Source: an uncultured Dehalococcoidia bacterium
Lineage (GTDB): Bacteria; Chloroflexota; Dehalococcoidia; Lucifugimonadales; UBA3495
Reading direction: 5' to 3'
DNA: 48,230 bases
NCBI GenBank assembly: GCA_950072105.1
Contig: CATMOE010000026.1
Span: 1 to 48,230 of the forward strand
Under the pieces are notes generated by a model, which was given only the letters and a program-made list of their open reading frames with translations, had not been told where the DNA came from and made no database searches. Shown piece by piece: positions 31,959-44,222 of the stretch (position 1 is the stretch's first letter; the number at the start of each line of letters is the position of its first letter). The translations under genes were made by a program, and so were the position numbers.

Positions 31959-33584
31959 CTACTTGTCATCCTCGGGTGCGCCCCATCCCCCGCCGCCCGG
32001 CGTGCGGATGCTCAATACGTCGCCCGGCTCCACGTCCAGCGTTTCTTTTCCCGCCAGGTGAACCTCTTCGTAGCCGCCCCTTAGCAACACGTTTTCGCCG
32101 GTCTCGCCGTGGTGGCCGCCGTGGAATCCGGGGGGCGGGAATTTCCGCCTCTCAGATAGGATGGTAACCCTGGCAGGGGCCAGGAACTCCACGTCGCGCA
32201 CCAGTCCGTCACCGCCCTGGTACTTGCCCCGGCCCCCCGAACCGCGCCGGATGGCGTACCGTTTTAGGCGCATCGGAAAAGCGAACTCAAAGGCCTCTAC
32301 GGGTGTATTCATAGTGTTGGTCATATGGGTGTGAATGCCCGAGATACCGTCCTTGGTCGGCCTGGCGCCCATGCCACCGGCTATGGTTTCGTAGTAAACG
32401 AATGGTTTGTTCCGGTCCAGGTCGTGGCCCCCCACCAGCAGATTGTTCATCGTGCCCTGGCTGGCGGCCGGGATCAACTCGGGCAAGGCTTGGGCTAAAG
32501 CGGAAAAGAGAACGTCGGTTATCCGTTGGGAAGTCTCCACGTTGCCGCCGGCCACGCCCCGTTGGGGTTCCGGGTTTACCAGAGTGCCGCGGGGAGTGAT
32601 GATTTTGATCGGACGCAGGCAGCCCTGGTTGGCCGGCGCTTCCTCACCCACGATGCACCGGATAACGTATAGACATGCTGAAACGGAGATGGCCTGAGGA
32701 GCGTTGATGCAGCCGGGCCGCTGGGGTGAAGTCCCGGTGAAGTCGACCGTGATCTCGTCTCCAGCGACGGTGATGCACACACGAATAGGCACGGGTTGAT
32801 CGGTCAACCCATCGTCGTCCATGTAGTCTACGACCTCGTAGACGCCGTCGGGAATGCGGGTGATGGCCTGGCGGGTCAGCCGCTCGGAGTAGTCCAGCAG
32901 CGCCGCCATATGCTCTTGCGTCTCATCGTTGCCATAGCGTTGAATGATTTCTTGCAATCGGCGCTCGCCGACTCTAGTGGAGGCGATCTGAGCGGCAAGG
33001 TCGCCTTTCCGCTCTTCCGGCGTGCGGGAGTTTCGGCAGATGAGCTGAATGACCTCGTGGTTCAGCCTTCCTCCCCGGATTAACTTGATGGGAGGTATTA
33101 TGGTTCCTTCCTGATACAGCTCGGTGGACAAAGGGAGAGAGCCCGGCGTCATGCCTCCCACGTCGGCGTGGTGACCCCTATTGGCGACGAATCCAGCCAG
33201 GCGCTTGGAAATCCCCCTGCTTCCCGCTTTACCCGAGGGGGAAGCAGGAATATCGGCGTATACCGGTGCGACCAGGGTGATATCCGGAAGGTGGGTGCCG
33301 CCTAGGTACGGGTCGTTCAGGATAACCATGTCTCCGGGCCGCAGGGCATTGGGAAAGGCGTCGATAGCCGCCCGTACCGAGGCCGGCATGGCCCCCAAGT
33401 GGACCGGGACATGGGCAGCTTGGGCGACCATTTGCGCTTCCGGGTCGAATATGGCGCATGAGAAGTCGCGCCGTTCCTTGATATTGGGAGAGTAGGCCGT
33501 GCGCTGTAGCGCCACCCCCATCTCTTCGGAGACGGATATGAACAGGCTCTTGAATACTTCCAGGCTTATTGGGTCGACGGCCAT
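31959..33584 (-). CDS. hyuB: Hydantoinase B / 5-oxoprolinase subunit
   Basis: TAYSPNIKERRDFSCA, PVHLGAM, NDPY.GGTHLPD, HHADVGG..PGS, SQGTMNN, YYETIAGG.GA, HMTNT.NTPVE, TPGGGGWG. Confidence 0.9.
   Translation of the reverse strand: MAVDPISLEVFKSLFISVSEEMGVALQRTAYSPNIKERRDFSCAIFDPEAQMVAQAAHVPVHLGAMPASVRAAIDAFPNALRPGDMVILNDPYLGGTHLPDITLVAPVYADIPASPSGKAGSRGISKRLAGFVANRGHHADVGGMTPGSLPLSTELYQEGTIIPPIKLIRGGRLNHEVIQLICRNSRTPEERKGDLAAQIASTRVGERRLQEIIQRYGNDETQEHMAALLDYSERLTRQAITRIPDGVYEVVDYMDDDGLTDQPVPIRVCITVAGDEITVDFTGTSPQRPGCINAPQAISVSACLYVIRCIVGEEAPANQGCLRPIKIITPRGTLVNPEPQRGVAGGNVETSQRITDVLFSALAQALPELIPAASQGTMNNLLVGGHDLDRNKPFVYYETIAGGMGARPTKDGISGIHTHMTNTMNTPVEAFEFAFPMRLKRYAIRRGSGGRGKYQGGDGLVRDVEFLAPARVTILSERRKFPPPGFHGGHHGETGENVLLRGGYEEVHLAGKETLDVEPGDVLSIRTPGGGGWGAPEDDK
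33210..33248. repeat. REP-like palindrome inside the hyuB reading frame
   Basis: Perfect 10-bp inverted repeat CCTGCTTCCC (33216-33225) / GGGAAGCAGG (33239-33248), within AATCCCCCT...CTTT...GAGGGGGA. Confidence 0.6.
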
Positions 33585-33643
33585 CGGCCACCTCGCGTTT
33601 TAATCTGCGTCACTCTGTAAATTTTATGACGGTTTTTCCGGGC

Positions 33644-35677
33644 TCACTCCGTCTCCAGCACCAGGTTCCCGTAGTCGTCCGTTGTACCGGTCCAGCCGGG
33701 CGTTATCACTACCGTGGTGTCCATCTGCAACACTATGGCAGGACCGGAGATCTGGTCTCCGGTCCGCAGATTCTCCCTATCGTAGAGGCGGGTTGTGACT
33801 GGGCCGCCCGAGAAGACCACTTGTACCTCCCCGATCAGCGCGGGAGTGGATCCAGAGCCCGCAGCTTGTACTGCTACTATCTGGGGTTTATCCATCTCGA
33901 GTCCGAGCTTGAGACGAAGGTTGACGATCTCCACCGCTTCGCCCCGGTCAGCGTAACCGAACCGCTGCAGGTGGGCCCGGTAGAAGCTGTCGGCGATAGA
34001 CCGGCGCATCCTCGCTGTGTCTATTCGGCGTGTGGGAGAAGGGTAATCGATGGTCAGCTCGAAGGACTGTCCCACATAGCGCACGTCCAGGAACCGCTGG
34101 GGCACCATGCGGTCCATGGGCAGTCCCTCCTTCTCCAATTCTTCCCTGGCTAATCCTTCCATACCGTGGAATTCTTCGTCCAGTTGGACACGGTTGATGT
34201 CGTCTCCCCGCATCATCACCGTTCGGGAGTAGTCTTTGACGATATCGGCGATGGCCACGCCTAGAGCCGACAGTATGCCGGGACGGGCGGGCACCAGGAC
34301 CCGGGGAATGCCCATTTCGTGGGCCAATTCGCAGCAGTGCATCGGACCCGCGCCACCGAAAGGCACCATGGTGAACTGACGGGGATCGTAGCCACGCTCT
34401 TGAGAGGTGGCGCGGATGGCCCGCGCCATGTTAGCGTTAACGACCCTGATAACGCCCAGAGCCGTCTCTTGGACGCTCAATGAAATCTGCGAAGCCAGTT
34501 CAGCGATCAGGCCCTCGGCCCGTTGGCGGTCCAGAGTCATTCGCCCACCAAGGAAATTGTCGGGCAGCATTCGTCCCAGAACCAGATTGGCGTCGGTAAC
34601 GGTGATCTGATCTCCCTTCCCGTAGCAAGCCGGGCCGGGGTCCGCTCCCGCCGATTGTGGGCCCACCACCAGGGCCCCTCCGGCGTCCACCCGGGCGATG
34701 GACCCGCCGCCGGCCCCGACGGTGTGTATATCTATCATTGGCACACTGATGGGATACCCCCCAACCTGGGAACCGGTGGTCTCCTTGATCCGAGACGGAC
34801 AGAGAGAGACGTCGGTGGACGTCCCACCCATGTCCAGGGTGATGATATCGGGATAGCCTGCCTGAACACCGGTGTAGAAAGCCCCCACCACTCCGCCGGC
34901 GGGACCGCTCAGGATAGTGCGCACCGGCTGGTCCGCCGCCAAACGCGCCGTGATGCTGCCCCCGGAGGACTGCATGATGCGCAGTCCCTTACCCAGTGAG
35001 TTCTCCAAGTTGGTCAAATAACGGCTCACGACCTGGCCGACGTAGGAGTTGATCACCACGGTGCTGGTGCGCTCGTACTCCCGGAACTCCGGCAGCACTT
35101 TGCTGGAGATGGAGATGAAAGGGTTGTTGGGCAGCTTTTCCAATGCGGCCAGCACGGCCTCTTCGTGGGCCGGATTTAGGAAGGAGAAGAGGAAAGACAC
35201 GGCGATGCTATCTACTTCGGCTTCCTCGATCAGGTGTACACAGGTCTGGATAGCTTCGGGCAGCAGGTCTTCCACGATAGCGCCGTGGTGGTCCACTCGC
35301 TCCGGCAAGCCGAACCGCAATTCCCAAGGCGCCAGGGGGGCTGGCCGGTCCACGTTAAGGTTATAGAGTTCGGAACGGCTCTGGCGGCCGATCTCCAGCA
35401 CGTCCTCAAACCCCAAGGTCGTGATTAGGGCCGTGCGGCCTCCTTTGCCCTCCAACAACGCGTTGGTTGCCACCGTGGAGCCGTGGACAAAATCGGCAGC
35501 GAATTCGCTGCCCCCGTCCACGAACTGTGGGCAGGCTTCTATTACGCCCTTCACGATCCCAACCGAAGGGTCACTGGGAGTGGAGGGTAGCTTGTGCACT
35601 CGCAACCGGCCATCTTCCAAGATGGCAATGTCGGTGAAGGTGCCGCCCACGTCGATTCCCACGATGGTTTTGGCCAT
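33644..35677 (-). CDS. hyuA: Hydantoinase A / 5-oxoprolinase ATP-binding subunit
   Basis: GIDVGGTFTD, HGSTVATNALLE, PEFREYER.ST, SGPAGGV, DMGGTSTDV, GAGGGSIA, GP.SAGA.PGPACYG, FGGAGPMH. Confidence 0.9.
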   Translation of the reverse strand: MAKTIVGIDVGGTFTDIAILEDGRLRVHKLPSTPSDPSVGIVKGVIEACPQFVDGGSEFAADFVHGSTVATNALLEGKGGRTALITTLGFEDVLEIGRQSRSELYNLNVDRPAPLAPWELRFGLPERVDHHGAIVEDLLPEAIQTCVHLIEEAEVDSIAVSFLFSFLNPAHEEAVLAALEKLPNNPFISISSKVLPEFREYERTSTVVINSYVGQVVSRYLTNLENSLGKGLRIMQSSGGSITARLAADQPVRTILSGPAGGVVGAFYTGVQAGYPDIITLDMGGTSTDVSLCPSRIKETTGSQVGGYPISVPMIDIHTVGAGGGSIARVDAGGALVVGPQSAGADPGPACYGKGDQITVTDANLVLGRMLPDNFLGGRMTLDRQRAEGLIAELASQISLSVQETALGVIRVVNANMARAIRATSQERGYDPRQFTMVPFGGAGPMHCCELAHEMGIPRVLVPARPGILSALGVAIADIVKDYSRTVMMRGDDINRVQLDEEFHGMEGLAREELEKEGLPMDRMVPQRFLDVRYVGQSFELTIDYPSPTRRIDTARMRRSIADSFYRAHLQRFGYADRGEAVEIVNLRLKLGLEMDKPQIVAVQAAGSGSTPALIGEVQVVFSGGPVTTRLYDRENLRTGDQISGPAIVLQMDTTVVITPGWTGTTDDYGNLVLETE

Positions 35678-35895: not shown

Positions 35896-36840
35896 TCAGG
35901 CGGTGAGGCGAGGGAGCACCTCGCGGGCGATCAGCTCCACCTGCTCAGGCTGATAACGGTAGGGAATCAGGACCAACCGGTCGACTCCCGTCTCGATGTG
36001 GGCCTGGAGTTGCTCGACACACTGGTCTGGTGTCCCGCAGATCGCATGTTCGATGGTGGAGTCGCTCCAGCCCGCCACGTCCCACTCGGTGCTCAGCCAG
36101 TGCCGCATGTCCGGATCGACCTCTTCCTTGGACGGCCCCACGTATATCGCTAATTGGTTCGTGGACGACAGGGTTGACGGGTCCCGCCCGTACTCTTCGG
36201 CGTAGGCAAGTACCTTGTCCCAAGATTTGGTGAAGCCTTCCGGCGTGTAGAAGTAAGTCAGCCAACCGTCCCCCATTCGGGCCGCGCGGCGCAGCACCGC
36301 GTCGACGTAGCCCCCGATCAGCACGGGAGGATGGGGCGACTGGTAGGGCTTGGGCAGGAGCACCGCCTGCCTCAAGTTATGGTTGTCCACCTGCAACGTT
36401 ACCGAGTCTTCGGTCCAAAGACGCAGCATAAGATCCAGGTTGCGTTCGAAGATCCGTCCGCGCCGCTTGAACTCCACACCCACGGCGTCGAACTCCCGAG
36501 CGTACCAGCCGGCGGCGGCCCCCACAATGAGCCGGCCTTTGGAGATTTGATCCAGGCTGGTCAACGTCTTGGCAGTTACCACCGGGTTCCGCAGCGGCAG
36601 CACTAAAACACCGGTTCCCAGCTTTATCCTAGTGGTGCGGGCCGCGATCGCAATGAGTATGGACAGGGCATCCAGGACGGGAAAAGCCGGATCCACGCCC
36701 AACAGCATGTGGTCCCATACCCAGAGGGACTCATAGCCCAGTTCCTCGGCCCGTTGGGCGTAAGCCAGGAGTTCGTCGACGTCCGGAGTCTCGCCGGGGC
36801 CCACGAAGTTCCTCATAGCGAGGCCAAATTGCACCGCCAT
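35896..36840 (-). CDS. LLM-class (luciferase-like, probably F420-dependent) oxidoreductase
   Basis: AEELGYESLWVWDH, T.RIKLGTGVLVLPLRNP...AK...LD.IS.GR, GW..REF, PKP.Q.PHPP..IGG, RAAR.GDGW. Confidence 0.9.
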   Translation of the reverse strand: MAVQFGLAMRNFVGPGETPDVDELLAYAQRAEELGYESLWVWDHMLLGVDPAFPVLDALSILIAIAARTTRIKLGTGVLVLPLRNPVVTAKTLTSLDQISKGRLIVGAAAGWYAREFDAVGVEFKRRGRIFERNLDLMLRLWTEDSVTLQVDNHNLRQAVLLPKPYQSPHPPVLIGGYVDAVLRRAARMGDGWLTYFYTPEGFTKSWDKVLAYAEEYGRDPSTLSSTNQLAIYVGPSKEEVDPDMRHWLSTEWDVAGWSDSTIEHAICGTPDQCVEQLQAHIETGVDRLVLIPYRYQPEQVELIAREVLPRLTA

Positions 36841-38697: not shown

Positions 38698-38726
38698 ATA
38701 CTATCGTCGCCACAGGTGCCTGTCAA
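38698..38726 (-). promoter_or_regulatory. Sigma70-type promoter for the gctA-gctB-LLM operon
   Basis: Minus-strand TTGACA (38726-38721), 17-bp spacer, TAGTAT (38703-38698). Confidence 0.65.
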
Positions 38727-38763: not shown

Positions 38764-38793
38764 TTGACACAGTTTAGAGCCCACCTCTATACT
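38764..38793 (+). promoter_or_regulatory. Sigma70-type promoter of the Mo-hydroxylase operon, probably leaderless
   Basis: TTGACA (38764-38769), 18-bp spacer, TATACT (38788-38793). The GTG start lies 7 nt after the -10 element, with no Shine-Dalgarno. Confidence 0.7.
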
Positions 38794-38800
38794 CTCGCCT

Positions 38801-39673
38801 GTGCTGGGGTTAGAAGGCTACTATGAGCCTGCCTCTATAGATGAGGCGTTGGACATCCTCCGCCGGGGCAACGGCAAGCCTTTCGCCGGCGGGACGGACG
38901 TGATCATCAATCTGCGCCGCCGGACAGTCACCTATAAAGGCCTGGTTAACATAAAGCGGTTGCCCGGCATAGCCGATTGGTCCACCAAGCCCGGAGAAGG
39001 GCTTCACATCGGTGCGGCCACGCCCTTTCGCGACCTGGAGAGTTCCCCCTCGGTGACGCAACGATACTCCGCCCTGGCAGAGTCGATCCGGGTGATCGGC
39101 TCCGTGCAGCTACGTAACATGGCAACGATCGGCGGCAACCTGTGTAACGCCTCCCCGGCAGCCGACAGCGCACCCGCATTGATAGTTTCCAAGGCCACGG
39201 TAACATTCACCGGGAACGGCGAAGGGACGCGCAGTTGCCTGGTGGAGCAGTTCTTTAGCGGCCCTGGGCGATCCATCCTGGATCCTGACGAACTTCTCTT
39301 GTCGCTGGAAATTCCCGAGCCTGAATCGGACAGCGGCGATTGTTTTCAACGATTCACTCCCCGGGGCGCCCTGGACATCGCCGTAGTCAGCGCCGCCTCC
39401 CGGGTCACCCTGGACCGGTCCAGCGGCCGGGTCCAAGAAGCGGTCATAGCCCTGGGGGCGGTGGCGCCAACCCCCGTGCGGGCGGGCAAAGCCGAAGACG
39501 CTTTGGTGGGCCACGAGCCGACGCCGGACCTGATGGCGCAGGCGGCCAAGATCGCCAGAGAGGAGTGCAACCCGATCAGCGACATCCGCGGTTCGGCTTC
39601 CTACCGGCAGGCGTTGATCGAGGTGCTGGTGCGGCGTACTCTGGAGCAGGCCGTGGAGCGGGCGCGAACGTAG
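38801..39673 (+). CDS. Xanthine dehydrogenase-family FAD-binding subunit (NdhF/CoxM-like)
   Basis: AGGTDV, IGS.Q.RN.ATIGGNLCNASPAAD, ALGAVAPTP, PISD.RGSA.YR. Confidence 0.95.
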   Translation: MLGLEGYYEPASIDEALDILRRGNGKPFAGGTDVIINLRRRTVTYKGLVNIKRLPGIADWSTKPGEGLHIGAATPFRDLESSPSVTQRYSALAESIRVIGSVQLRNMATIGGNLCNASPAADSAPALIVSKATVTFTGNGEGTRSCLVEQFFSGPGRSILDPDELLLSLEIPEPESDSGDCFQRFTPRGALDIAVVSAASRVTLDRSSGRVQEAVIALGAVAPTPVRAGKAEDALVGHEPTPDLMAQAAKIAREECNPISDIRGSASYRQALIEVLVRRTLEQAVERART

Positions 39674-40141
39674 ATGGAACACTACTCCTTAAAGATTAAT
39701 GGCAACGTTTACGAGACCGATGCCGAGCCCTTCGAGTCCCTTCTGGACGTCCTGCGGGAAAAGCTGCGGCTTACCGGCTCCAAGAAAGGTTGTGACGAGG
39801 GCGAGTGCGGCGCATGTACCGCTCTTCTGGACGGCAAGCCGGTCCTGTCCTGCATCCTTCTGGTTAGTGATGTCCGGGACAGGGAAGTTCTCACCATAGA
39901 GGGCTTGCCCCAGGGCGGTGAACCCCACCCGATCCAGGTGGAGATGACGGAACGGGGCGGCATACAGTGCGGGTACTGCACTCCCGGCATAATTATGAGC
40001 GCCTACGCCTTACTTCAAGAGAACCCACGCCCCAGCGAAGACGAGATCCGATTCGCCATCGCGGGCAACATCTGCCGGTGCACCGGCTACAGCAAGATCG
40101 TGGAAGCGCTGCAGGCGGCGGCAGGCACTCCTATCCGGTAA
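39674..40141 (+). CDS. 2x[2Fe-2S] subunit (NdhS/CoxS-like)
   Basis: GSKKGCDEGECGACT..C, QCGYCTPG, GNICRCTGY. Confidence 0.95.
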   Translation: MEHYSLKINGNVYETDAEPFESLLDVLREKLRLTGSKKGCDEGECGACTALLDGKPVLSCILLVSDVRDREVLTIEGLPQGGEPHPIQVEMTERGGIQCGYCTPGIIMSAYALLQENPRPSEDEIRFAIAGNICRCTGYSKIVEALQAAAGTPIR

Positions 40142-40179
40142 AAGGCCGGACCGTAACCCCGCCACCAGGGAGCCTTGGC

Positions 40180-41490
40180 ATGGCACAACCGGAGCAAGTT
40201 ACCTCAGCGGCCCAGAGCGGCCCATACGACTGGATCGGCACCAGCGTGCCCAAGGTTGATGCCCTGGACAAAGCCCTGGGTATTACCCAATACGTGGGCG
40301 ACATGCAGATGCCCGGCATGCTCCACGCCCGGATCCGATGGTCCGGCGTCCCCCATGCGGTCATTCGCGGTATCGACACGTCGGACGCGGAGAAGGTCCC
40401 GGGCGTGCGGGCCGTGCTCACCGCCGGTGACATACCCGGCGTCAACCGGTACGGTCTGGCAGTGCAGGACCAGCGGGTCTTGGCCGACGACAAAGTACGG
40501 TCCGCCGCTGATCCGGTGGCGCTGGTGGCGGCGGAGACCGAGCAGGCCGCGGAAGAAGCCATAAACAAGATCAAGCTGGACCTGGAGCCGCTTCGTCCCG
40601 TCCTGAGCATCGAGGACGCACTGGACCCAACCGCTCCCGCGATTCACGAAGGTGGAAACCTCTTCGCCCGTACCACTGTCCGCAAGGGGGACCTGGATCA
40701 AGGTGTCAGGGAATCGGACGTGATCGTAGAGACGACTTACCGGACGCACCTGATGGACCACATGGCGATGGAGACGGAATCCAGTCTGGCTTATATTGAC
40801 CCCACCGGCGTGCTCACCATCATCACCTCCACCCAATATCCCTACCGGGACCGGCGTCAGATCGCGCCCGCGCTGAACTTGAGCATGAACAAGGTGCGGG
40901 TCGTTCAGGCTCCCATCGGGGGTGGATTTGGACGCAAAGACGACATAACGTCCGAGATCCATGCGGGGCTGCTGGCTCTGAAGACTCAGCGGCCGGTGCG
41001 TTTGATCTACACCCGCCAGGACTCGTTGATCGCCAACACCAAGCGCCACCCCATGCTGTTGAAGTTTCGCACCGGGGCCCGGAGCGATGGCCGGCTTACT
41101 TTCGTGGATGCCGATATCTACGGAGATACCGGCGCGTATCTGTCGTTGGGAGCATTCGTGATTAAGAAGGCTGGTATTCACGCCTGCGGTCCCTATGACG
41201 TGCCCAACATCCGTGTCGATACCCATACGCTTTACACCAACAACCTTTCCAGCGGCGCCATGCGGGGCTTCGGCGTGCTGCAAGCAGCGGTGGCCCACGA
41301 GTCTCAGATGGACCAACTGGCCCACCGTTTGGGAATCTCCCCCATAGATATCCGCCTGATCAATACCCTCAAGCCCGGCCTACCCACGGGCACGGGACAG
41401 GTGATGGACGAGGGTTGTGGCATCGAAGCCACGGTGCTTCGCATCAAGGAATACATGGAGTCCCAAGATTTGAGGTTCGCGCGCTCATGA
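40180..41490 (+). CDS. Molybdopterin-binding large subunit, N-terminal half (NdhL-like)
   Basis: IG.SVP.VDA..K..G...Y..D, STQYP, IGGGFGRK, KRHP, GPY..PN, TNN...GAMRGFG..Q..AHESQMD. Confidence 0.9.
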   Translation: MAQPEQVTSAAQSGPYDWIGTSVPKVDALDKALGITQYVGDMQMPGMLHARIRWSGVPHAVIRGIDTSDAEKVPGVRAVLTAGDIPGVNRYGLAVQDQRVLADDKVRSAADPVALVAAETEQAAEEAINKIKLDLEPLRPVLSIEDALDPTAPAIHEGGNLFARTTVRKGDLDQGVRESDVIVETTYRTHLMDHMAMETESSLAYIDPTGVLTIITSTQYPYRDRRQIAPALNLSMNKVRVVQAPIGGGFGRKDDITSEIHAGLLALKTQRPVRLIYTRQDSLIANTKRHPMLLKFRTGARSDGRLTFVDADIYGDTGAYLSLGAFVIKKAGIHACGPYDVPNIRVDTHTLYTNNLSSGAMRGFGVLQAAVAHESQMDQLAHRLGISPIDIRLINTLKPGLPTGTGQVMDEGCGIEATVLRIKEYMESQDLRFARS

Positions 41491-42497
41491 CCAAAAAAAG
41501 AGGCTTGGGCGTCGGCTCAATGTTCTACGGTATCGGCTACGGGTTCAACCGTGCCGATATAGGCTCGGCCTACATCGAGATGGCCGAGGACGGCACCACC
41601 ACGGTGTATTCCGGGGCCTGCGACATGGGCCAGGGAATCATGACCGTCGTTGCTCAAGTAGCGGCGGAGGTCGTCGGCGCCGACATCGACACCATCCGGG
41701 TGGTGGCGGCCGACACGACCAGCACTCCGGACGCCGGTCCCACGTCGGGTAGCCGCGCCACCTTCGTGCAGGGCATCGCGGTGCACGAAGCCGCGTCCGA
41801 CCTTCACGACCAACTGATGCAGACCGCGGCCGGTATGTTCGAATGCGAGAAGGATGAGCTGGAAGCCCACAACGGGGATGTATATCTGAAGGGCGCCAAT
41901 GCCCCGATCGCCTCCCTGGCAGAAGTCGCTGCCCGGGTCCATCTCTTGGGAGGCCGGTGCGGCAGTTGGGGCTGGCACGACAACAGCACTGCCGACGTGG
42001 ATCCCGAGACCTCTCAGGGCGATGCCTACGCCAGTTACGGTTGGGCCACCCAGTTGGCGGAGGTTGAAGTGGACACCGAGACCGGCCACGTCAAGGTGTT
42101 GAAGATTGTCTCCGCCACCGACGCCGGTAAGGCCATCAACCCGGTCGCCGTCGAGGGCCAGATACAGGGTGGCGCGGCCATGGGAGTGGGTTACGCCCTT
42201 TACGAACAGCATATCCTCGACCAAGGCGTTCCGCGCACCGACTCGATGGCATTTTATCTGGTGCCCACCTCTATGGATGTACCCGAGATACAGTGCGAGA
42301 TCGTGGAGGTTTACGACCCCAAGGGACCCTTTGGAGCCAAGGGCATAGCCGAACCGGCGACCGTGCCCACAACCTCGGCGATCCTTAATGCGATCTACGA
42401 CGCCATCGGCATAAGAATAACCGACACCCCGGCCACCCCGGAAAGAGTGTTCCAGGCTATACAAGAGGCGAGGGCTAGAGGCGAGTTTGAGGATTAG
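41487..42497 (+). CDS. Molybdopterin-binding medium subunit, C-terminal half (NdhM-like)
   Basis: MTKKRGLGVGSMFYGIG, DMGQG, TP.AGPTSGSR, AEVEVD.ETG, INP..VEGQIQGG, GPFGAKGIAEP (catalytic Glu). ATGA overlap at 41487-41490 with a GAGG RBS. Confidence 0.9.
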   Translation: MTKKRGLGVGSMFYGIGYGFNRADIGSAYIEMAEDGTTTVYSGACDMGQGIMTVVAQVAAEVVGADIDTIRVVAADTTSTPDAGPTSGSRATFVQGIAVHEAASDLHDQLMQTAAGMFECEKDELEAHNGDVYLKGANAPIASLAEVAARVHLLGGRCGSWGWHDNSTADVDPETSQGDAYASYGWATQLAEVEVDTETGHVKVLKIVSATDAGKAINPVAVEGQIQGGAAMGVGYALYEQHILDQGVPRTDSMAFYLVPTSMDVPEIQCEIVEVYDPKGPFGAKGIAEPATVPTTSAILNAIYDAIGIRITDTPATPERVFQAIQEARARGEFED

Positions 42498-42536
42498 GCC
42501 GTTTGATAGGTAATGCCAACAACTGGGTAGGTAAAC

Positions 42537-43571
42537 ATGCCTGATTGGGATTCCAGACGCCGGATAGCCGAAGATATTACCGAGGCCGCAGGCATGACCC
42601 CACTGGTGCGGCTTCGGAAGGTTGCCTTAGGTCCTCAAGCCCTTTGCGGCAAGCTGGAGTTTATGAACCCCAGCTCCAGCCTGAAGGACCGTATACTTCG
42701 CCATATGGTTAGCAAGGCCGAGGAACGTGGCGAGTTGCGACCTGGCATGACCATCCTAGAGGCGTCCACCGGAAGCACCGGGATCGCCACCGCGATGATC
42801 GGCGCGGTCAAGGGTTACCCAGTGGTCATCGTCATGCCCGAGGGCATGAGTGTAGAACGCAAGGATTCTTTGCGGGCCTATGGGGCCGAGTTGGTGATGA
42901 CACCCGGAGGGGAGAGCGACGTTGACCTGTGCTTCGGCAAGGTTGCCGAGTTGAAGCAGGAGAGCCCAGGTAAGTTCTGGGAAGCGGCCCAATTTTCGAA
43001 TAAAGACAACATCGAGGCCCATTACCTCACCACTGGCCCGGAGGTCTGGGAGCAGACCGGCGGCACGGTGGACGTGTTCATCGCCTCCCAGGGTAGTGGC
43101 GGCACGATCTCCGGCGTGGGCAAGTACCTGAAAGAGCGGAACCCCCAGGTCAAGATCTACACTGTCGAGCCAGCGGAGTGTCCGATTCTAACCGGGGGCG
43201 GTTGGGGACCCCACCAGATCGAGGGAATAGGCGACGGGTTTATCCCGGACAACCTGGACTTGGACTACGTTGACGGGGTGGTGACCGTCTCTTCCCAGGA
43301 ATCTATCGATATGGCGCACCGGTTGGCTCTTGAAGAGGGCATATTCTGCGGAATCTCTTCGGGCTGCAACGTGGTGGCCGCCAACAAGCTGGCTCCCGAG
43401 CTGCCTGGGACCAGTCTCATGGTAACCATGATAAACGACACGGGTATGCGGTACTTCTCAACTCCCCTGTTCGGCCGGGAGTCCACCACGGAGATCCCCG
43501 ACCGCGATCACCCGGTCAGTGAAGCGGACCGCCGGAACCTGGCGGGCAGGCATCTGCACATCGTGCGCTAA
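42537..43571 (+). CDS. PLP-dependent cysteine synthase family protein (atypical CysK-like)
   Basis: TPLVRL, KLEFMNPSSSLKDR (PLP Lys), MPE.MS.ER, H..TTGPE.W.Q, GSGGT..GVG, HQIEGIG.GF.P, GISSG.N. Confidence 0.9.
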   Translation: MPDWDSRRRIAEDITEAAGMTPLVRLRKVALGPQALCGKLEFMNPSSSLKDRILRHMVSKAEERGELRPGMTILEASTGSTGIATAMIGAVKGYPVVIVMPEGMSVERKDSLRAYGAELVMTPGGESDVDLCFGKVAELKQESPGKFWEAAQFSNKDNIEAHYLTTGPEVWEQTGGTVDVFIASQGSGGTISGVGKYLKERNPQVKIYTVEPAECPILTGGGWGPHQIEGIGDGFIPDNLDLDYVDGVVTVSSQESIDMAHRLALEEGIFCGISSGCNVVAANKLAPELPGTSLMVTMINDTGMRYFSTPLFGRESTTEIPDRDHPVSEADRRNLAGRHLHIVR

Positions 43572-43661: not shown

Positions 43662-44222
43662 TCAGAGTTTCTTTACCGCGTCGCCTGGTCTTATCTCACC
43701 GCCCTGCACCACCTTGAGGTTTATGCCCCGCAGTTGGAGTTCTCTACCTGTCGGAGAGCTAATAAACTTCAAGGCGTCTGCGCCGAACCGGGCAGCGAAT
43801 TTCTTGCAGCCGGTGTGGGGCTGATCCGTGGCCTCCAGGATGGCTGAACCCACGGAGATGCGGGTGCCGGGGGGCACGTTGGCTTTACTCAGGTCCAGGT
43901 CCACAAACAACTGGTCGCCGGACAACGGCCAGCGGTCCTTGGATTGGGCCACCAAGGCCGCGACTCGGGAGTTCATCAAGGTGATTTGCATATCGGGGTG
44001 GGCCTTGCCGTCACCGCTGCGGACGCTGGGCCGGTCCCGCCAAGTGTCGCCCACCAAACCAACCTCAACGTGCAGGTCGGCCAGTTCCATAACCTCACGC
44101 GCGTCCTCTTCAGGACGGCTGACGATCAGGTCCAGAACGCTCCGGTCTTTTGGCGAATCGCGTATCTCATCAAGCCCGGCTTCCAAGTCGGCTGCGGACA
44201 GGTGCATTATCTCTGCTTGCAT
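43662..44222 (-). CDS. MOSC domain protein (YiiM-like)
   Basis: GLVGD.W, QITLMN, GDQLFVDLDLS..N.P.GTR..VGSA.LE.T..PHTGC.KF, RGIN.KV..GGEI.PGD. Confidence 0.85.
   Translation of the reverse strand: MQAEIMHLSAADLEAGLDEIRDSPKDRSVLDLIVSRPEEDAREVMELADLHVEVGLVGDTWRDRPSVRSGDGKAHPDMQITLMNSRVAALVAQSKDRWPLSGDQLFVDLDLSKANVPPGTRISVGSAILEATDQPHTGCKKFAARFGADALKFISSPTGRELQLRGINLKVVQGGEIRPGDAVKKL

Follow-up and report, generated by a model that had tools for sequence, protein, structure and literature searches.

The window analysed here is a stretch of 48,230 nucleotides from an uncultured Dehalococcoidia bacterium (contig CATMOE010000026.1, assembly GCA_950072105.1). Feature coordinates are window positions; G000 is the source genome, and other G, L and C numbers are genome, locus and contig labels. 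The system under study consists of the genes F, S, L and M of a molybdenum (Mo) hydroxylase, hereafter FSLM, followed by K, a gene for a CysK-like pyridoxal 5′-phosphate (PLP) enzyme, and of a divergent arm encoding a CoA transferase and an F420-dependent LLM oxidoreductase (Table 1). The FSLM-K system is real and conserved, and is a variant of reductive N-heterocycle catabolism with a PLP enzyme family not described before.

The initial annotation had described an F-S-L-M gene order with a split Mo subunit, and this holds: the L stop and the M start overlap in an ATGA at 41487-41490, and a GAGGT about 12 nt upstream of this junction, a somewhat long spacing, forms the ribosome-binding site reported for M. 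M starts MTKKRGLGVGSMFYGIG, as given there, and the gap between M and K is indeed 39 bp. Separate L and M open reading frames (ORFs) recur across orthologous loci, so the split is no assembly error. Two small ORFs lie between L and M in one Dehalococcoidia family (L142 11632-12670, L145 12401-13445).

Sigma70-like sites numbered 6, against 1.5 +/- 1.3 in shuffles. Both hexamers of each divergent promoter are kept in L039, L120 and L121, where the forward-strand one has a 17-nt spacer. Ending 7 nt before the GTG of F, the latter suggests a leaderless mRNA for the F operon. In four marine metatranscriptome assemblies, contigs match parts of both arms and of K; such contigs do not prove transcription, and among the pieces listed none bridges M and K. 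In CoA transferase subunit B the IVVEGG motif retains its Glu, presumably the catalytic residue.

Table 1. Genes and promoters of the two divergent arms (window positions)
Feature	Position	Strand	Basis
F, FAD subunit of Mo-hydroxylase, 290 aa	38801..39673	+	GTG start; PF00941 + PF03450
S, 2x[2Fe-2S] subunit, 155 aa	39674..40141	+	PF00111 + PF01799
L, N-terminal molybdenum cofactor (Moco) subunit, NdhL-like, 436 aa	40180..41490	+	homology, invariant residues
M, C-terminal Moco subunit, NdhM-like, 336 aa	41487..42497	+	homology, invariant residues
K, CysK-like fold-type II PLP enzyme, 344 aa	42537..43571	+	own clade, PLP Lys50
Family I CoA transferase subunit A, 318 aa	37615..38571	-	PF01144
CoA transferase subunit B, glutaconate CoA-transferase-like, 252 aa	36860..37618	-	best PDB match 1poi_B, E 3e-45
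F420-dependent LLM oxidoreductase, 314 aa, candidate ring reductase	35896..36840	-	TIGR03619 206.5 bits, cut-off 166.9
Sigma70-like promoter TTGACA-18-TATACT	38764..38793	+	11/12 match; 7 nt upstream of F GTG
Divergent sigma70-like promoter TTGACA-17-TAGTAT for CoA-transferase/LLM arm	38698..38726	-	10/12 match

An Ndh-like Mo-hydroxylase

The proposed likeness to nicotinate dehydrogenase (Ndh) was borne out in layout and homology: there are four subunits with a split Mo subunit, and 3HRD is the closest solved homologue of both L (NdhL, 379 bits vs 206 for the next match) and M (NdhM, 240 bits vs 177). Absence of the CoxL motif, also claimed earlier, was equally clear, since the active-site loop of L reads GAMRGFG and its CoxL score is 164 vs 950 bits; the Cys-containing loop AYRCSF is typical of CoxL (PMC8305194). 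On the locus proteins, every NCBIfam Mo-hydroxylase model stays below its cut-off. 4-Hydroxybenzoyl-CoA reductase was rejected in this way, with scores below the cut-offs of TIGR03193/03194/03195 (178/258; 287 and 250/995; 106/405 bits), the 106 bits against the beta-subunit cut-off of 405 being those of F.

Moco-contact motifs are conserved in alignment with 3HRD and the Rhodobacter capsulatus xanthine dehydrogenase (XDH). Among orthologue rows of at least 65% identity, residues Q219, Y220, R252, D254, K329 and K330 of L are invariant (40/40), as is Y18 of M (40/40), while Glu289 in the GIAEP motif of M, which we take to be the catalytic Glu, is found in 41/41. Relative to NdhL, four positions are changed (G241 to R252, L243 to D254, T318 to K329, R319 to K330), and the changed residues are invariant in the 40 rows. 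D254 falls in the column of XDH Glu232, occupied by Leu in NdhL; K330 is Arg in both references. Assuming the pocket roles that we ascribe to R319 and Y13 in Ndh, the pocket residues R252, D254, K329, K330 and M Y18 together suggest an anionic N-heterocycle as substrate, neither nicotinate nor xanthine. FSLM would work like Ndh; with pocket residues that are changed and invariant, it should not be filed as Ndh.

Selenium dependence of FSLM, raised by the initial annotation, was rejected on its genomic markers. Genes yqeB and yqeC, proposed together with selD as markers of Se-dependent Mo hydroxylases (PMC2276186, Haft and Self), are absent from G000, a 92% complete genome, and yqeB is also absent in 20/20 further FSLM genomes. 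The suggested look-up of the three genes thus gave a divided answer: selD is present in G000, but yqeB was found in 0/21 FSLM genomes and yqeC in 0/1. The selD gene (L001, G000:C60:2148-3071) has one in-frame TGA and probably encodes a selenoprotein itself, from which G000 would appear to use selenocysteine. These data suggest that FSLM is an Ndh-like split Mo-hydroxylase without a selenium system, and such a layout is therefore not to be read as a selenium marker. The sulfido ligand of Mo as such is documented in PMC7759655, which cites the XdhC paper.

Conservation of the FSLM-K link

The genome scan with K covered the best 80 of 186 relatives, to which 14 loci were added (94 in all). Forty-three close loci, some of them short, have at least 68% identity to K, 24 belonging to one Binatia clade; 38 are mid-distance. 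The closest relatives are marine Chloroflexota/Dehalococcoidia metagenome-assembled genomes (MAGs), for which 'SAR202' is our own label. Within 10 kb of K, the close loci carry orthologous FSLM (32/43), the CoA transferase (27/43) and the LLM gene (31/43). A DUF6282 gene (32/43), a racemase-family gene (30/43) and a threonine-synthase-like gene (31/43) recur likewise. Direct adjacency of M and K is rare (1/43 close loci plus the window), the racemase and DUF6282 genes usually standing between them; in G001, L120 and L121 a PLP aminotransferase-family gene does so.

Conservation of the cysK linkage, on which the initial annotation had hinged its reading, was also evident beyond immediate neighbourhood. 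Of 151 order-level genomes, 7 have the L orthologue, 8 have K and 7 have CoA transferase A; all seven L genomes and all seven CoA-transferase genomes carry K, even with K 22-105 kb away. These counts come from three families for L and four for K, and hence few independent events. The FSLM-K link is beyond chance, and orthologues of FSLM, K and the module genes occur together in Dehalococcoidia, Binatia and Anaerolineae.

K occurs without an L orthologue in five genomes (G002, G016, G177, G178, G074). Where FSLM is absent it stays with the CoA transferase and LLM genes (L046, L057, L191, L192). The fetched DNA of L191 and L192, with the order K-DUF6282-CoA transferase-LLM, contains no Mo gene; in L193 the module is paired with an unrelated Mo enzyme. 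The divergent CoA-transferase/F420-reductase arm belongs to the same module as FSLM-K. A metagenome scan with L returned 20 loci, mostly short, of which L126 and L127 show FSLM and no K in the fetched DNA. In G031 the module lies in two pieces on separate contigs, F-S-M-K (L043 7397-11029) and UbiD-L-M (L140 7416-11267), with M present twice. In L057 (8087-9799), a single 570-aa ORF comprises both CoA transferase A and B.

Two neighbours in the window were considered as module members. A MOSC-domain gene (43662-44222, minus strand) is convergent with K and was set aside, as it was no recurring neighbour in the locus clusters examined. Hydantoinase/oxoprolinase A and B genes (31959-35677, minus strand) lie downstream of the LLM gene on the same strand. 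As a ring opener this pair was rejected: its linkage is limited to this genus, it stands at least 160 kb from the module in G027 and G159, and neither G031 nor G177 yielded it. A PxpA (5-oxoprolinase subunit) gene adjoins K in L043 and L094.

The K family and its proposed role

The changes in the CysK loops pointed out in the initial annotation (TSGNT to STGST, GVGTGGT to SQGSGGT) are present in K, within the motifs EASTGSTG (75-82) and SQGSGGT (184-190). The Asn to Ser change is limited to the FSLM-linked subclade (S in 43, N in 52 of 95 rows). The family-wide signature, which had gone unremarked, is D128/D130/D233, found in 95/95 rows together with PLP Lys50 (95/95); E229 occurs in 83/95. 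Position 233 is Ala in 8 canonical CysK outgroup rows, and D233 is also seen in 2/15 outgroup rows, one being a CysM-type row aligned across a gap. In the alignment, D233 of K corresponds to StCysK Ala231/CysM Arg210, and D128-V129 stand at Met119. Both positions are reported to line the active site, the former setting the size of the sulfur donor over PLP, with Arg210 credited with thiosulfate binding (PMC9547175, PMC3805590). An Asp at position 233 suggests, from the residue change, that a cationic amine group would be accommodated.

The K model (pLDDT 90.9) has beta-cyanoalanine synthase and O-acetylserine sulfhydrylase (OASS) as top fold matches. The top 50 of the fold search are OASS-family matches only, at 38-47% identity, which does not separate functions. 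A C-terminal extension of about 30 aa is present. In a quick, midpoint-rooted tree the K family forms one clade (95 rows, SH-aLRT 97) apart from 15 CysK/CysM-type outgroup rows, and the FSLM-linked subclade (43 rows, SH-aLRT 100) nests among K genes of purine clusters. A K profile splits 16 family members (at least 567 bits) from ordinary CysK (at most 380) in 351 genomes. A subclade of 10 rows, mostly from Actinomycetota, is the most distant one; it has no E229, has ETF, acyl-CoA dehydrogenase and MttB genes as neighbours, and may have a different function. A divergent K subclade, L107 and L110-L118, with GTDID and HGVPGIG motifs, is accompanied by dimethylglycine-dehydrogenase-like, ETF, acyl-CoA dehydrogenase and MttB genes, possibly for methylamine or betaine catabolism. 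Other atypical CysK-fold paralogues, with motifs such as WATSGNSG and HMIPGIG, occur in L009, L010, L014, L016 and L027.

That K is a housekeeping OASS in an incidental position is hardly credible. K does pass TIGR01136 cysKM narrowly (346.9 vs 344.15 bits) and its relatives are named 'cysteine synthase A' in their sources, but it misses TIGR01139 cysK (344.2 vs 350.95), forms its own clade and is present in only 8/151 order genomes. Moreover, cysE is absent from G000 (best 35 vs 211 bits), and a separate Rrf2-moeB-cysM locus with a mycobacterial-type cysM (G000:C59:12504-15350) is likely the housekeeping cysteine route of this cysE-less genome. The earlier view of K as atypical and not a housekeeping cysteine synthase is therefore sound. 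Judged by its sequence, K is a PLP enzyme of a CysK-related clade not described before; the database name of its relatives is probably a mis-annotation, and the three-Asp signature now identifies them.

Mid-distance K genes pointed to a function. Genes ssnA, ygeW-like or ygeY are present in 22/38 of these loci, often with adenine deaminase, a xanthine-dehydrogenase-type enzyme and carbamate kinase, and K stands directly before a ygeW-like gene in, for example, L056, L059, L063, L185 and L188-L190, or before ygeY in L102 and L109. YgeY yields 2,3-diaminopropionate, which YgeX cleaves to pyruvate (10.1101/2025.04.24.650524, PMC12507026). Immediately before K in L184 (4429-7800) stand two dihydroorotate/dihydropyrimidine-dehydrogenase-like genes, a position expected of a UacX-type ring reductase.

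Across 351 Chloroflexota genomes (G236 enters this total only), K was found in 16, ygeY in 48 and, at E <= 1e-60, ygeX in 15. The 16 K genomes carry ygeY in 12 cases and ygeX in none. A threonine-synthase-like gene, often 3-22 kb from ygeY, accompanies ygeY in 40 of these 48 genomes. K is present in all 8 that lack this gene, and the gene is present in all 36 that lack K; the chance value of this complementarity is 1.3e-6 by genome and 0.011 by family. In-frame TGA flags in hits to this gene were ordinary stop codons in the 2 checked of 8 genome hits. ygeX was absent from 31/31 close-clade K genomes and below cut-off in 5/5 purine-cluster genomes; a search of G000 with TIGR01747 (DpaL/YgeX) gave nothing at E <= 1e-30, and the 25 best-scoring families of K do not include this model.

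In the reading that we somewhat favour, K acts as a PLP beta-lyase on diaminopropionate or on one of its N-substituted forms, and so ends an N-heterocycle catabolic route encoded by the two divergent operons. The beta-substituent pocket of K, with its three invariant Asp, is acidic and would therefore suit an amine group. The gene content of the operons is observed, and their reactions, as one route for an anionic N-heterocycle, would run as follows. FSLM, as an ordinary sulfido-Mo (not Se) hydroxylase, would oxidise or reduce a ring carbon; the CoA transferase would activate the ring carboxylate; the F420-LLM enzyme would reduce a ring C=C, such ring reductases having been proposed for Chloroflexota uricolytic clusters (Li et al. 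2025, PMC12507026); and hydrolases, DUF6282 and the racemase in Binatia, would open the ring. PLP of K would then bind the resulting alpha-amino acid, the Asp residues binding and protonating its beta-amine, and elimination would give pyruvate and ammonia or an amine. K would thus resemble the diaminopropionate ammonia-lyase YgeX in its action while being built on the scaffold of CysK. Ring acids with two vicinal N-bearing carbons, such as imidazole-4- or pyrazine-2-carboxylate, are conceivable substrates because both contain the diaminopropionate skeleton.

The first option of the initial annotation was that K, as a cysteine/selenocysteine lyase, gives sulfide (or selenide) for the terminal Mo ligand. 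This we consider unlikely, despite several suggestive neighbourhoods. K is repeatedly beside Mo-hydroxylase genes of unrelated subfamilies (a Mo gene in 33/43 close and 22/38 mid-distance loci), yqeC and xdhC lie downstream of K in three Acidobacteriota loci, and two haloarchaeal K genes adjoin yqeC/selD/yqeB, in the order yqeB/selD/tusA/yqeC-[hypothetical]-K-moeA-nucleotidyltransferase in Haladaptatus halobius and similarly in Halostella. The Haladaptatus K is 54% identical to K, with the same signature. However, the haloarchaeal block sits in a purine cluster without annotated dpaL, and yqeB, missing from all the FSLM genomes, is kept in 12/12 ygeY genomes with K and 34/36 without it; K therefore neither needs the Se trait nor is needed by it. 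G000 has 22 L-type hits and one K, and K is absent in 143/151 relatives, several listed ones with 13-18 first-look L candidates. Insertion of the sulfido ligand is the task of XdhC with a desulfurase, and away from K, G000 carries a single xdhC next to a mocA-like gene, together with three class-V PLP genes of the desulfurase family. K also persists in the five genomes without an FSLM orthologue and in the L191/L192 operon without a Mo gene in the fetched DNA, and its acidic pocket would be ill-suited to HS-/HSe-. It reaches only 57 bits (56.8, NF052478) against the Cds1 cut-off of 600, and a Cds1-type desulfhydrase was rejected; a likeness to the Cds1 motif was dropped too, as the main text of PMC8389258 does not show that motif. 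A role of K as sulfide donor, general or dedicated, is thus disfavoured.

The Haladaptatus plasmid region (NZ_CP085337.1, about 513-548 kb; L146/L147) holds a purine cluster with two Mo hydroxylases, LLM, npdG, a thrC-like gene and K, together with a block for Se maturation that includes DsrE/TusB/TusA; its annotation lists no dpaL.

K might instead be a beta-replacement enzyme, forming aminoacrylate from diaminopropionate or ureido-alanine and adding a nucleophile, either sulfide for salvage of the C3 unit to cysteine or an amine as in SbnA. K keeps an intact CysK fold and PLP site, a genome without cysE would profit from a further donor of aminoacrylate, co-occurrence with the threonine-synthase-like gene permits two distinct steps, and an OCD-family gene occurs in the Binatia operon. 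We nevertheless judge it improbable: the moeB-cysM route already exists in G000, the OCD gene is 4-6 genes off with no orthologue in G000, and in the 8 ygeY genomes with K that have neither ygeX nor the threonine-synthase-like gene, K is the only identified candidate for a terminal lyase.

The second option raised initially, a pathway role of K on a sulfur-containing intermediate, survived in its first half: a pathway role is the better option than sulfide supply, but the evidence favours an amine-bearing intermediate. In this scheme a sulfur heterocycle, e.g. thiazole carboxylate, would open to cysteine or an S-substituted cysteine from which K removes sulfur. The CoA transferase/LLM/Mo set suits any heteroaromatic acid, and S-amino acids are established substrates of CysK-fold enzymes; yet the same acidic signature is found in sulfur-free purine clusters and no conserved sulfur-handling neighbour gene was seen in close loci, which makes the scheme very unlikely.

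Several points weigh against the beta-lyase reading of K. Among the ygeY genomes, K (12 of 48) and ygeX (6 of 48) never occur together, but by itself this exclusion falls short of significance. The threonine-synthase-like gene used for the complementarity is itself uncharacterised and co-occurs with K in 4/12 K+ygeY genomes and 31/43 close loci, so the two are not strictly exchangeable. E-value thresholds were chosen by us, completeness of the MAGs lies at 88-100%, and related genomes do not count as independent. Pocket positions of K come from sequence alignment and not from inspected coordinates. G000 has no orthologue of the DUF6282, racemase, threonine-synthase-like or UbiD genes, and DUF6282 is also missing in G027, G159, G177 and G031; the ring-opening step is therefore without a gene here. 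G002 and G016 carry K with neither FSLM nor CoA transferase. Finally, K is within 500 bp of a Mo-hydroxylase gene in 11/38 mid-distance loci, and yqeC or xdhC is in the same fetched DNA as K in 5/94 loci.

A wider proposal, which we put forward tentatively and regard as doubtful in its full extent, is that K represents an unrecognised family of at least six bacterial phyla and haloarchaea, in which a CysK scaffold was turned into an amine-eliminating lyase that takes the place of YgeX in many purine clusters. Its task in marine SAR202-type Dehalococcoidia and Binatia would be to end a selenium-free, CoA- and F420-dependent route to pyruvate and ammonia; the route would start from a diaza-heteroaromatic acid of the imidazole-/pyrazine-carboxylate type, which the decay of purines, histidine or pterins might release. 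If true, K would account for a missing step of the reductive purine pathway where ygeX is lacking and would help to define the substrate of an N-heterocycle pathway in abundant, uncultured marine bacteria, and the route it ends would be a new sink for ring-bound dissolved organic nitrogen.

Comparison with known systems

No description of the FSLM-K pairing or of a CysK-like YgeX substitute was found in the open literature, subscription journals and supplements lying outside the scope; supplementary tables of two uric-acid papers could list K-type genes. Nothing on pyrazine-carboxylate turnover by Ndh-type enzymes came up in the paper search, and PMC5395668 treats SAR202 xanthine-dehydrogenase-like paralogues in no more than general terms.

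Eubacterium barkeri NdhFSLM (3HRD), whose genes are ordered F-S-L-M (PMC10331938), shares with the locus the four-gene order, the split point, Q208, the xxRGFG loop and Y13 of NdhM. FSLM differs in lacking yqeB/yqeC and in its neighbours, the CoA transferase, the F420-LLM enzyme and K. The locus flanks showed no recognisable genes of nicotinate fermentation.

The reductive uric-acid/2,8-dioxopurine pathway (XdhD or DOPDH, YgfK, SsnA, HyuA, YgeW, YgeY, YgeX) likewise combines a Mo-hydroxylase, a ring reductase, hydrolases and a terminal PLP lyase, and DOPDH is reported as closest to NDH (10.1101/2025.04.24.650524). In contrast, G000 has no orthologues of ygeY, ssnA, ygeW, carbamate kinase or yqeB, a CoA transferase is added, and K is built on the CysK scaffold, not on DpaL. 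The uricolytic survey scored YgeX only as PF00291 (PMC12507026), which K and the threonine-synthase-like gene would match too.

With CysK/CysM and beta-cyanoalanine synthase, K shares fold type II, the PLP lysine, QF and GISSG. Active-site motifs of the former are TSGNT, GVGT and GIGA (PMC9547175); besides its altered loops, K differs in GIGA to GIGD, the GxMxGA segment to ESDVD, Gln227 to Glu and the C-terminal extension. Similarly, K and YgeX/DpaL have the same PLP fold type and, as proposed here, would share reaction and gene slot, whereas K is not a member of that family (TIGR01747).

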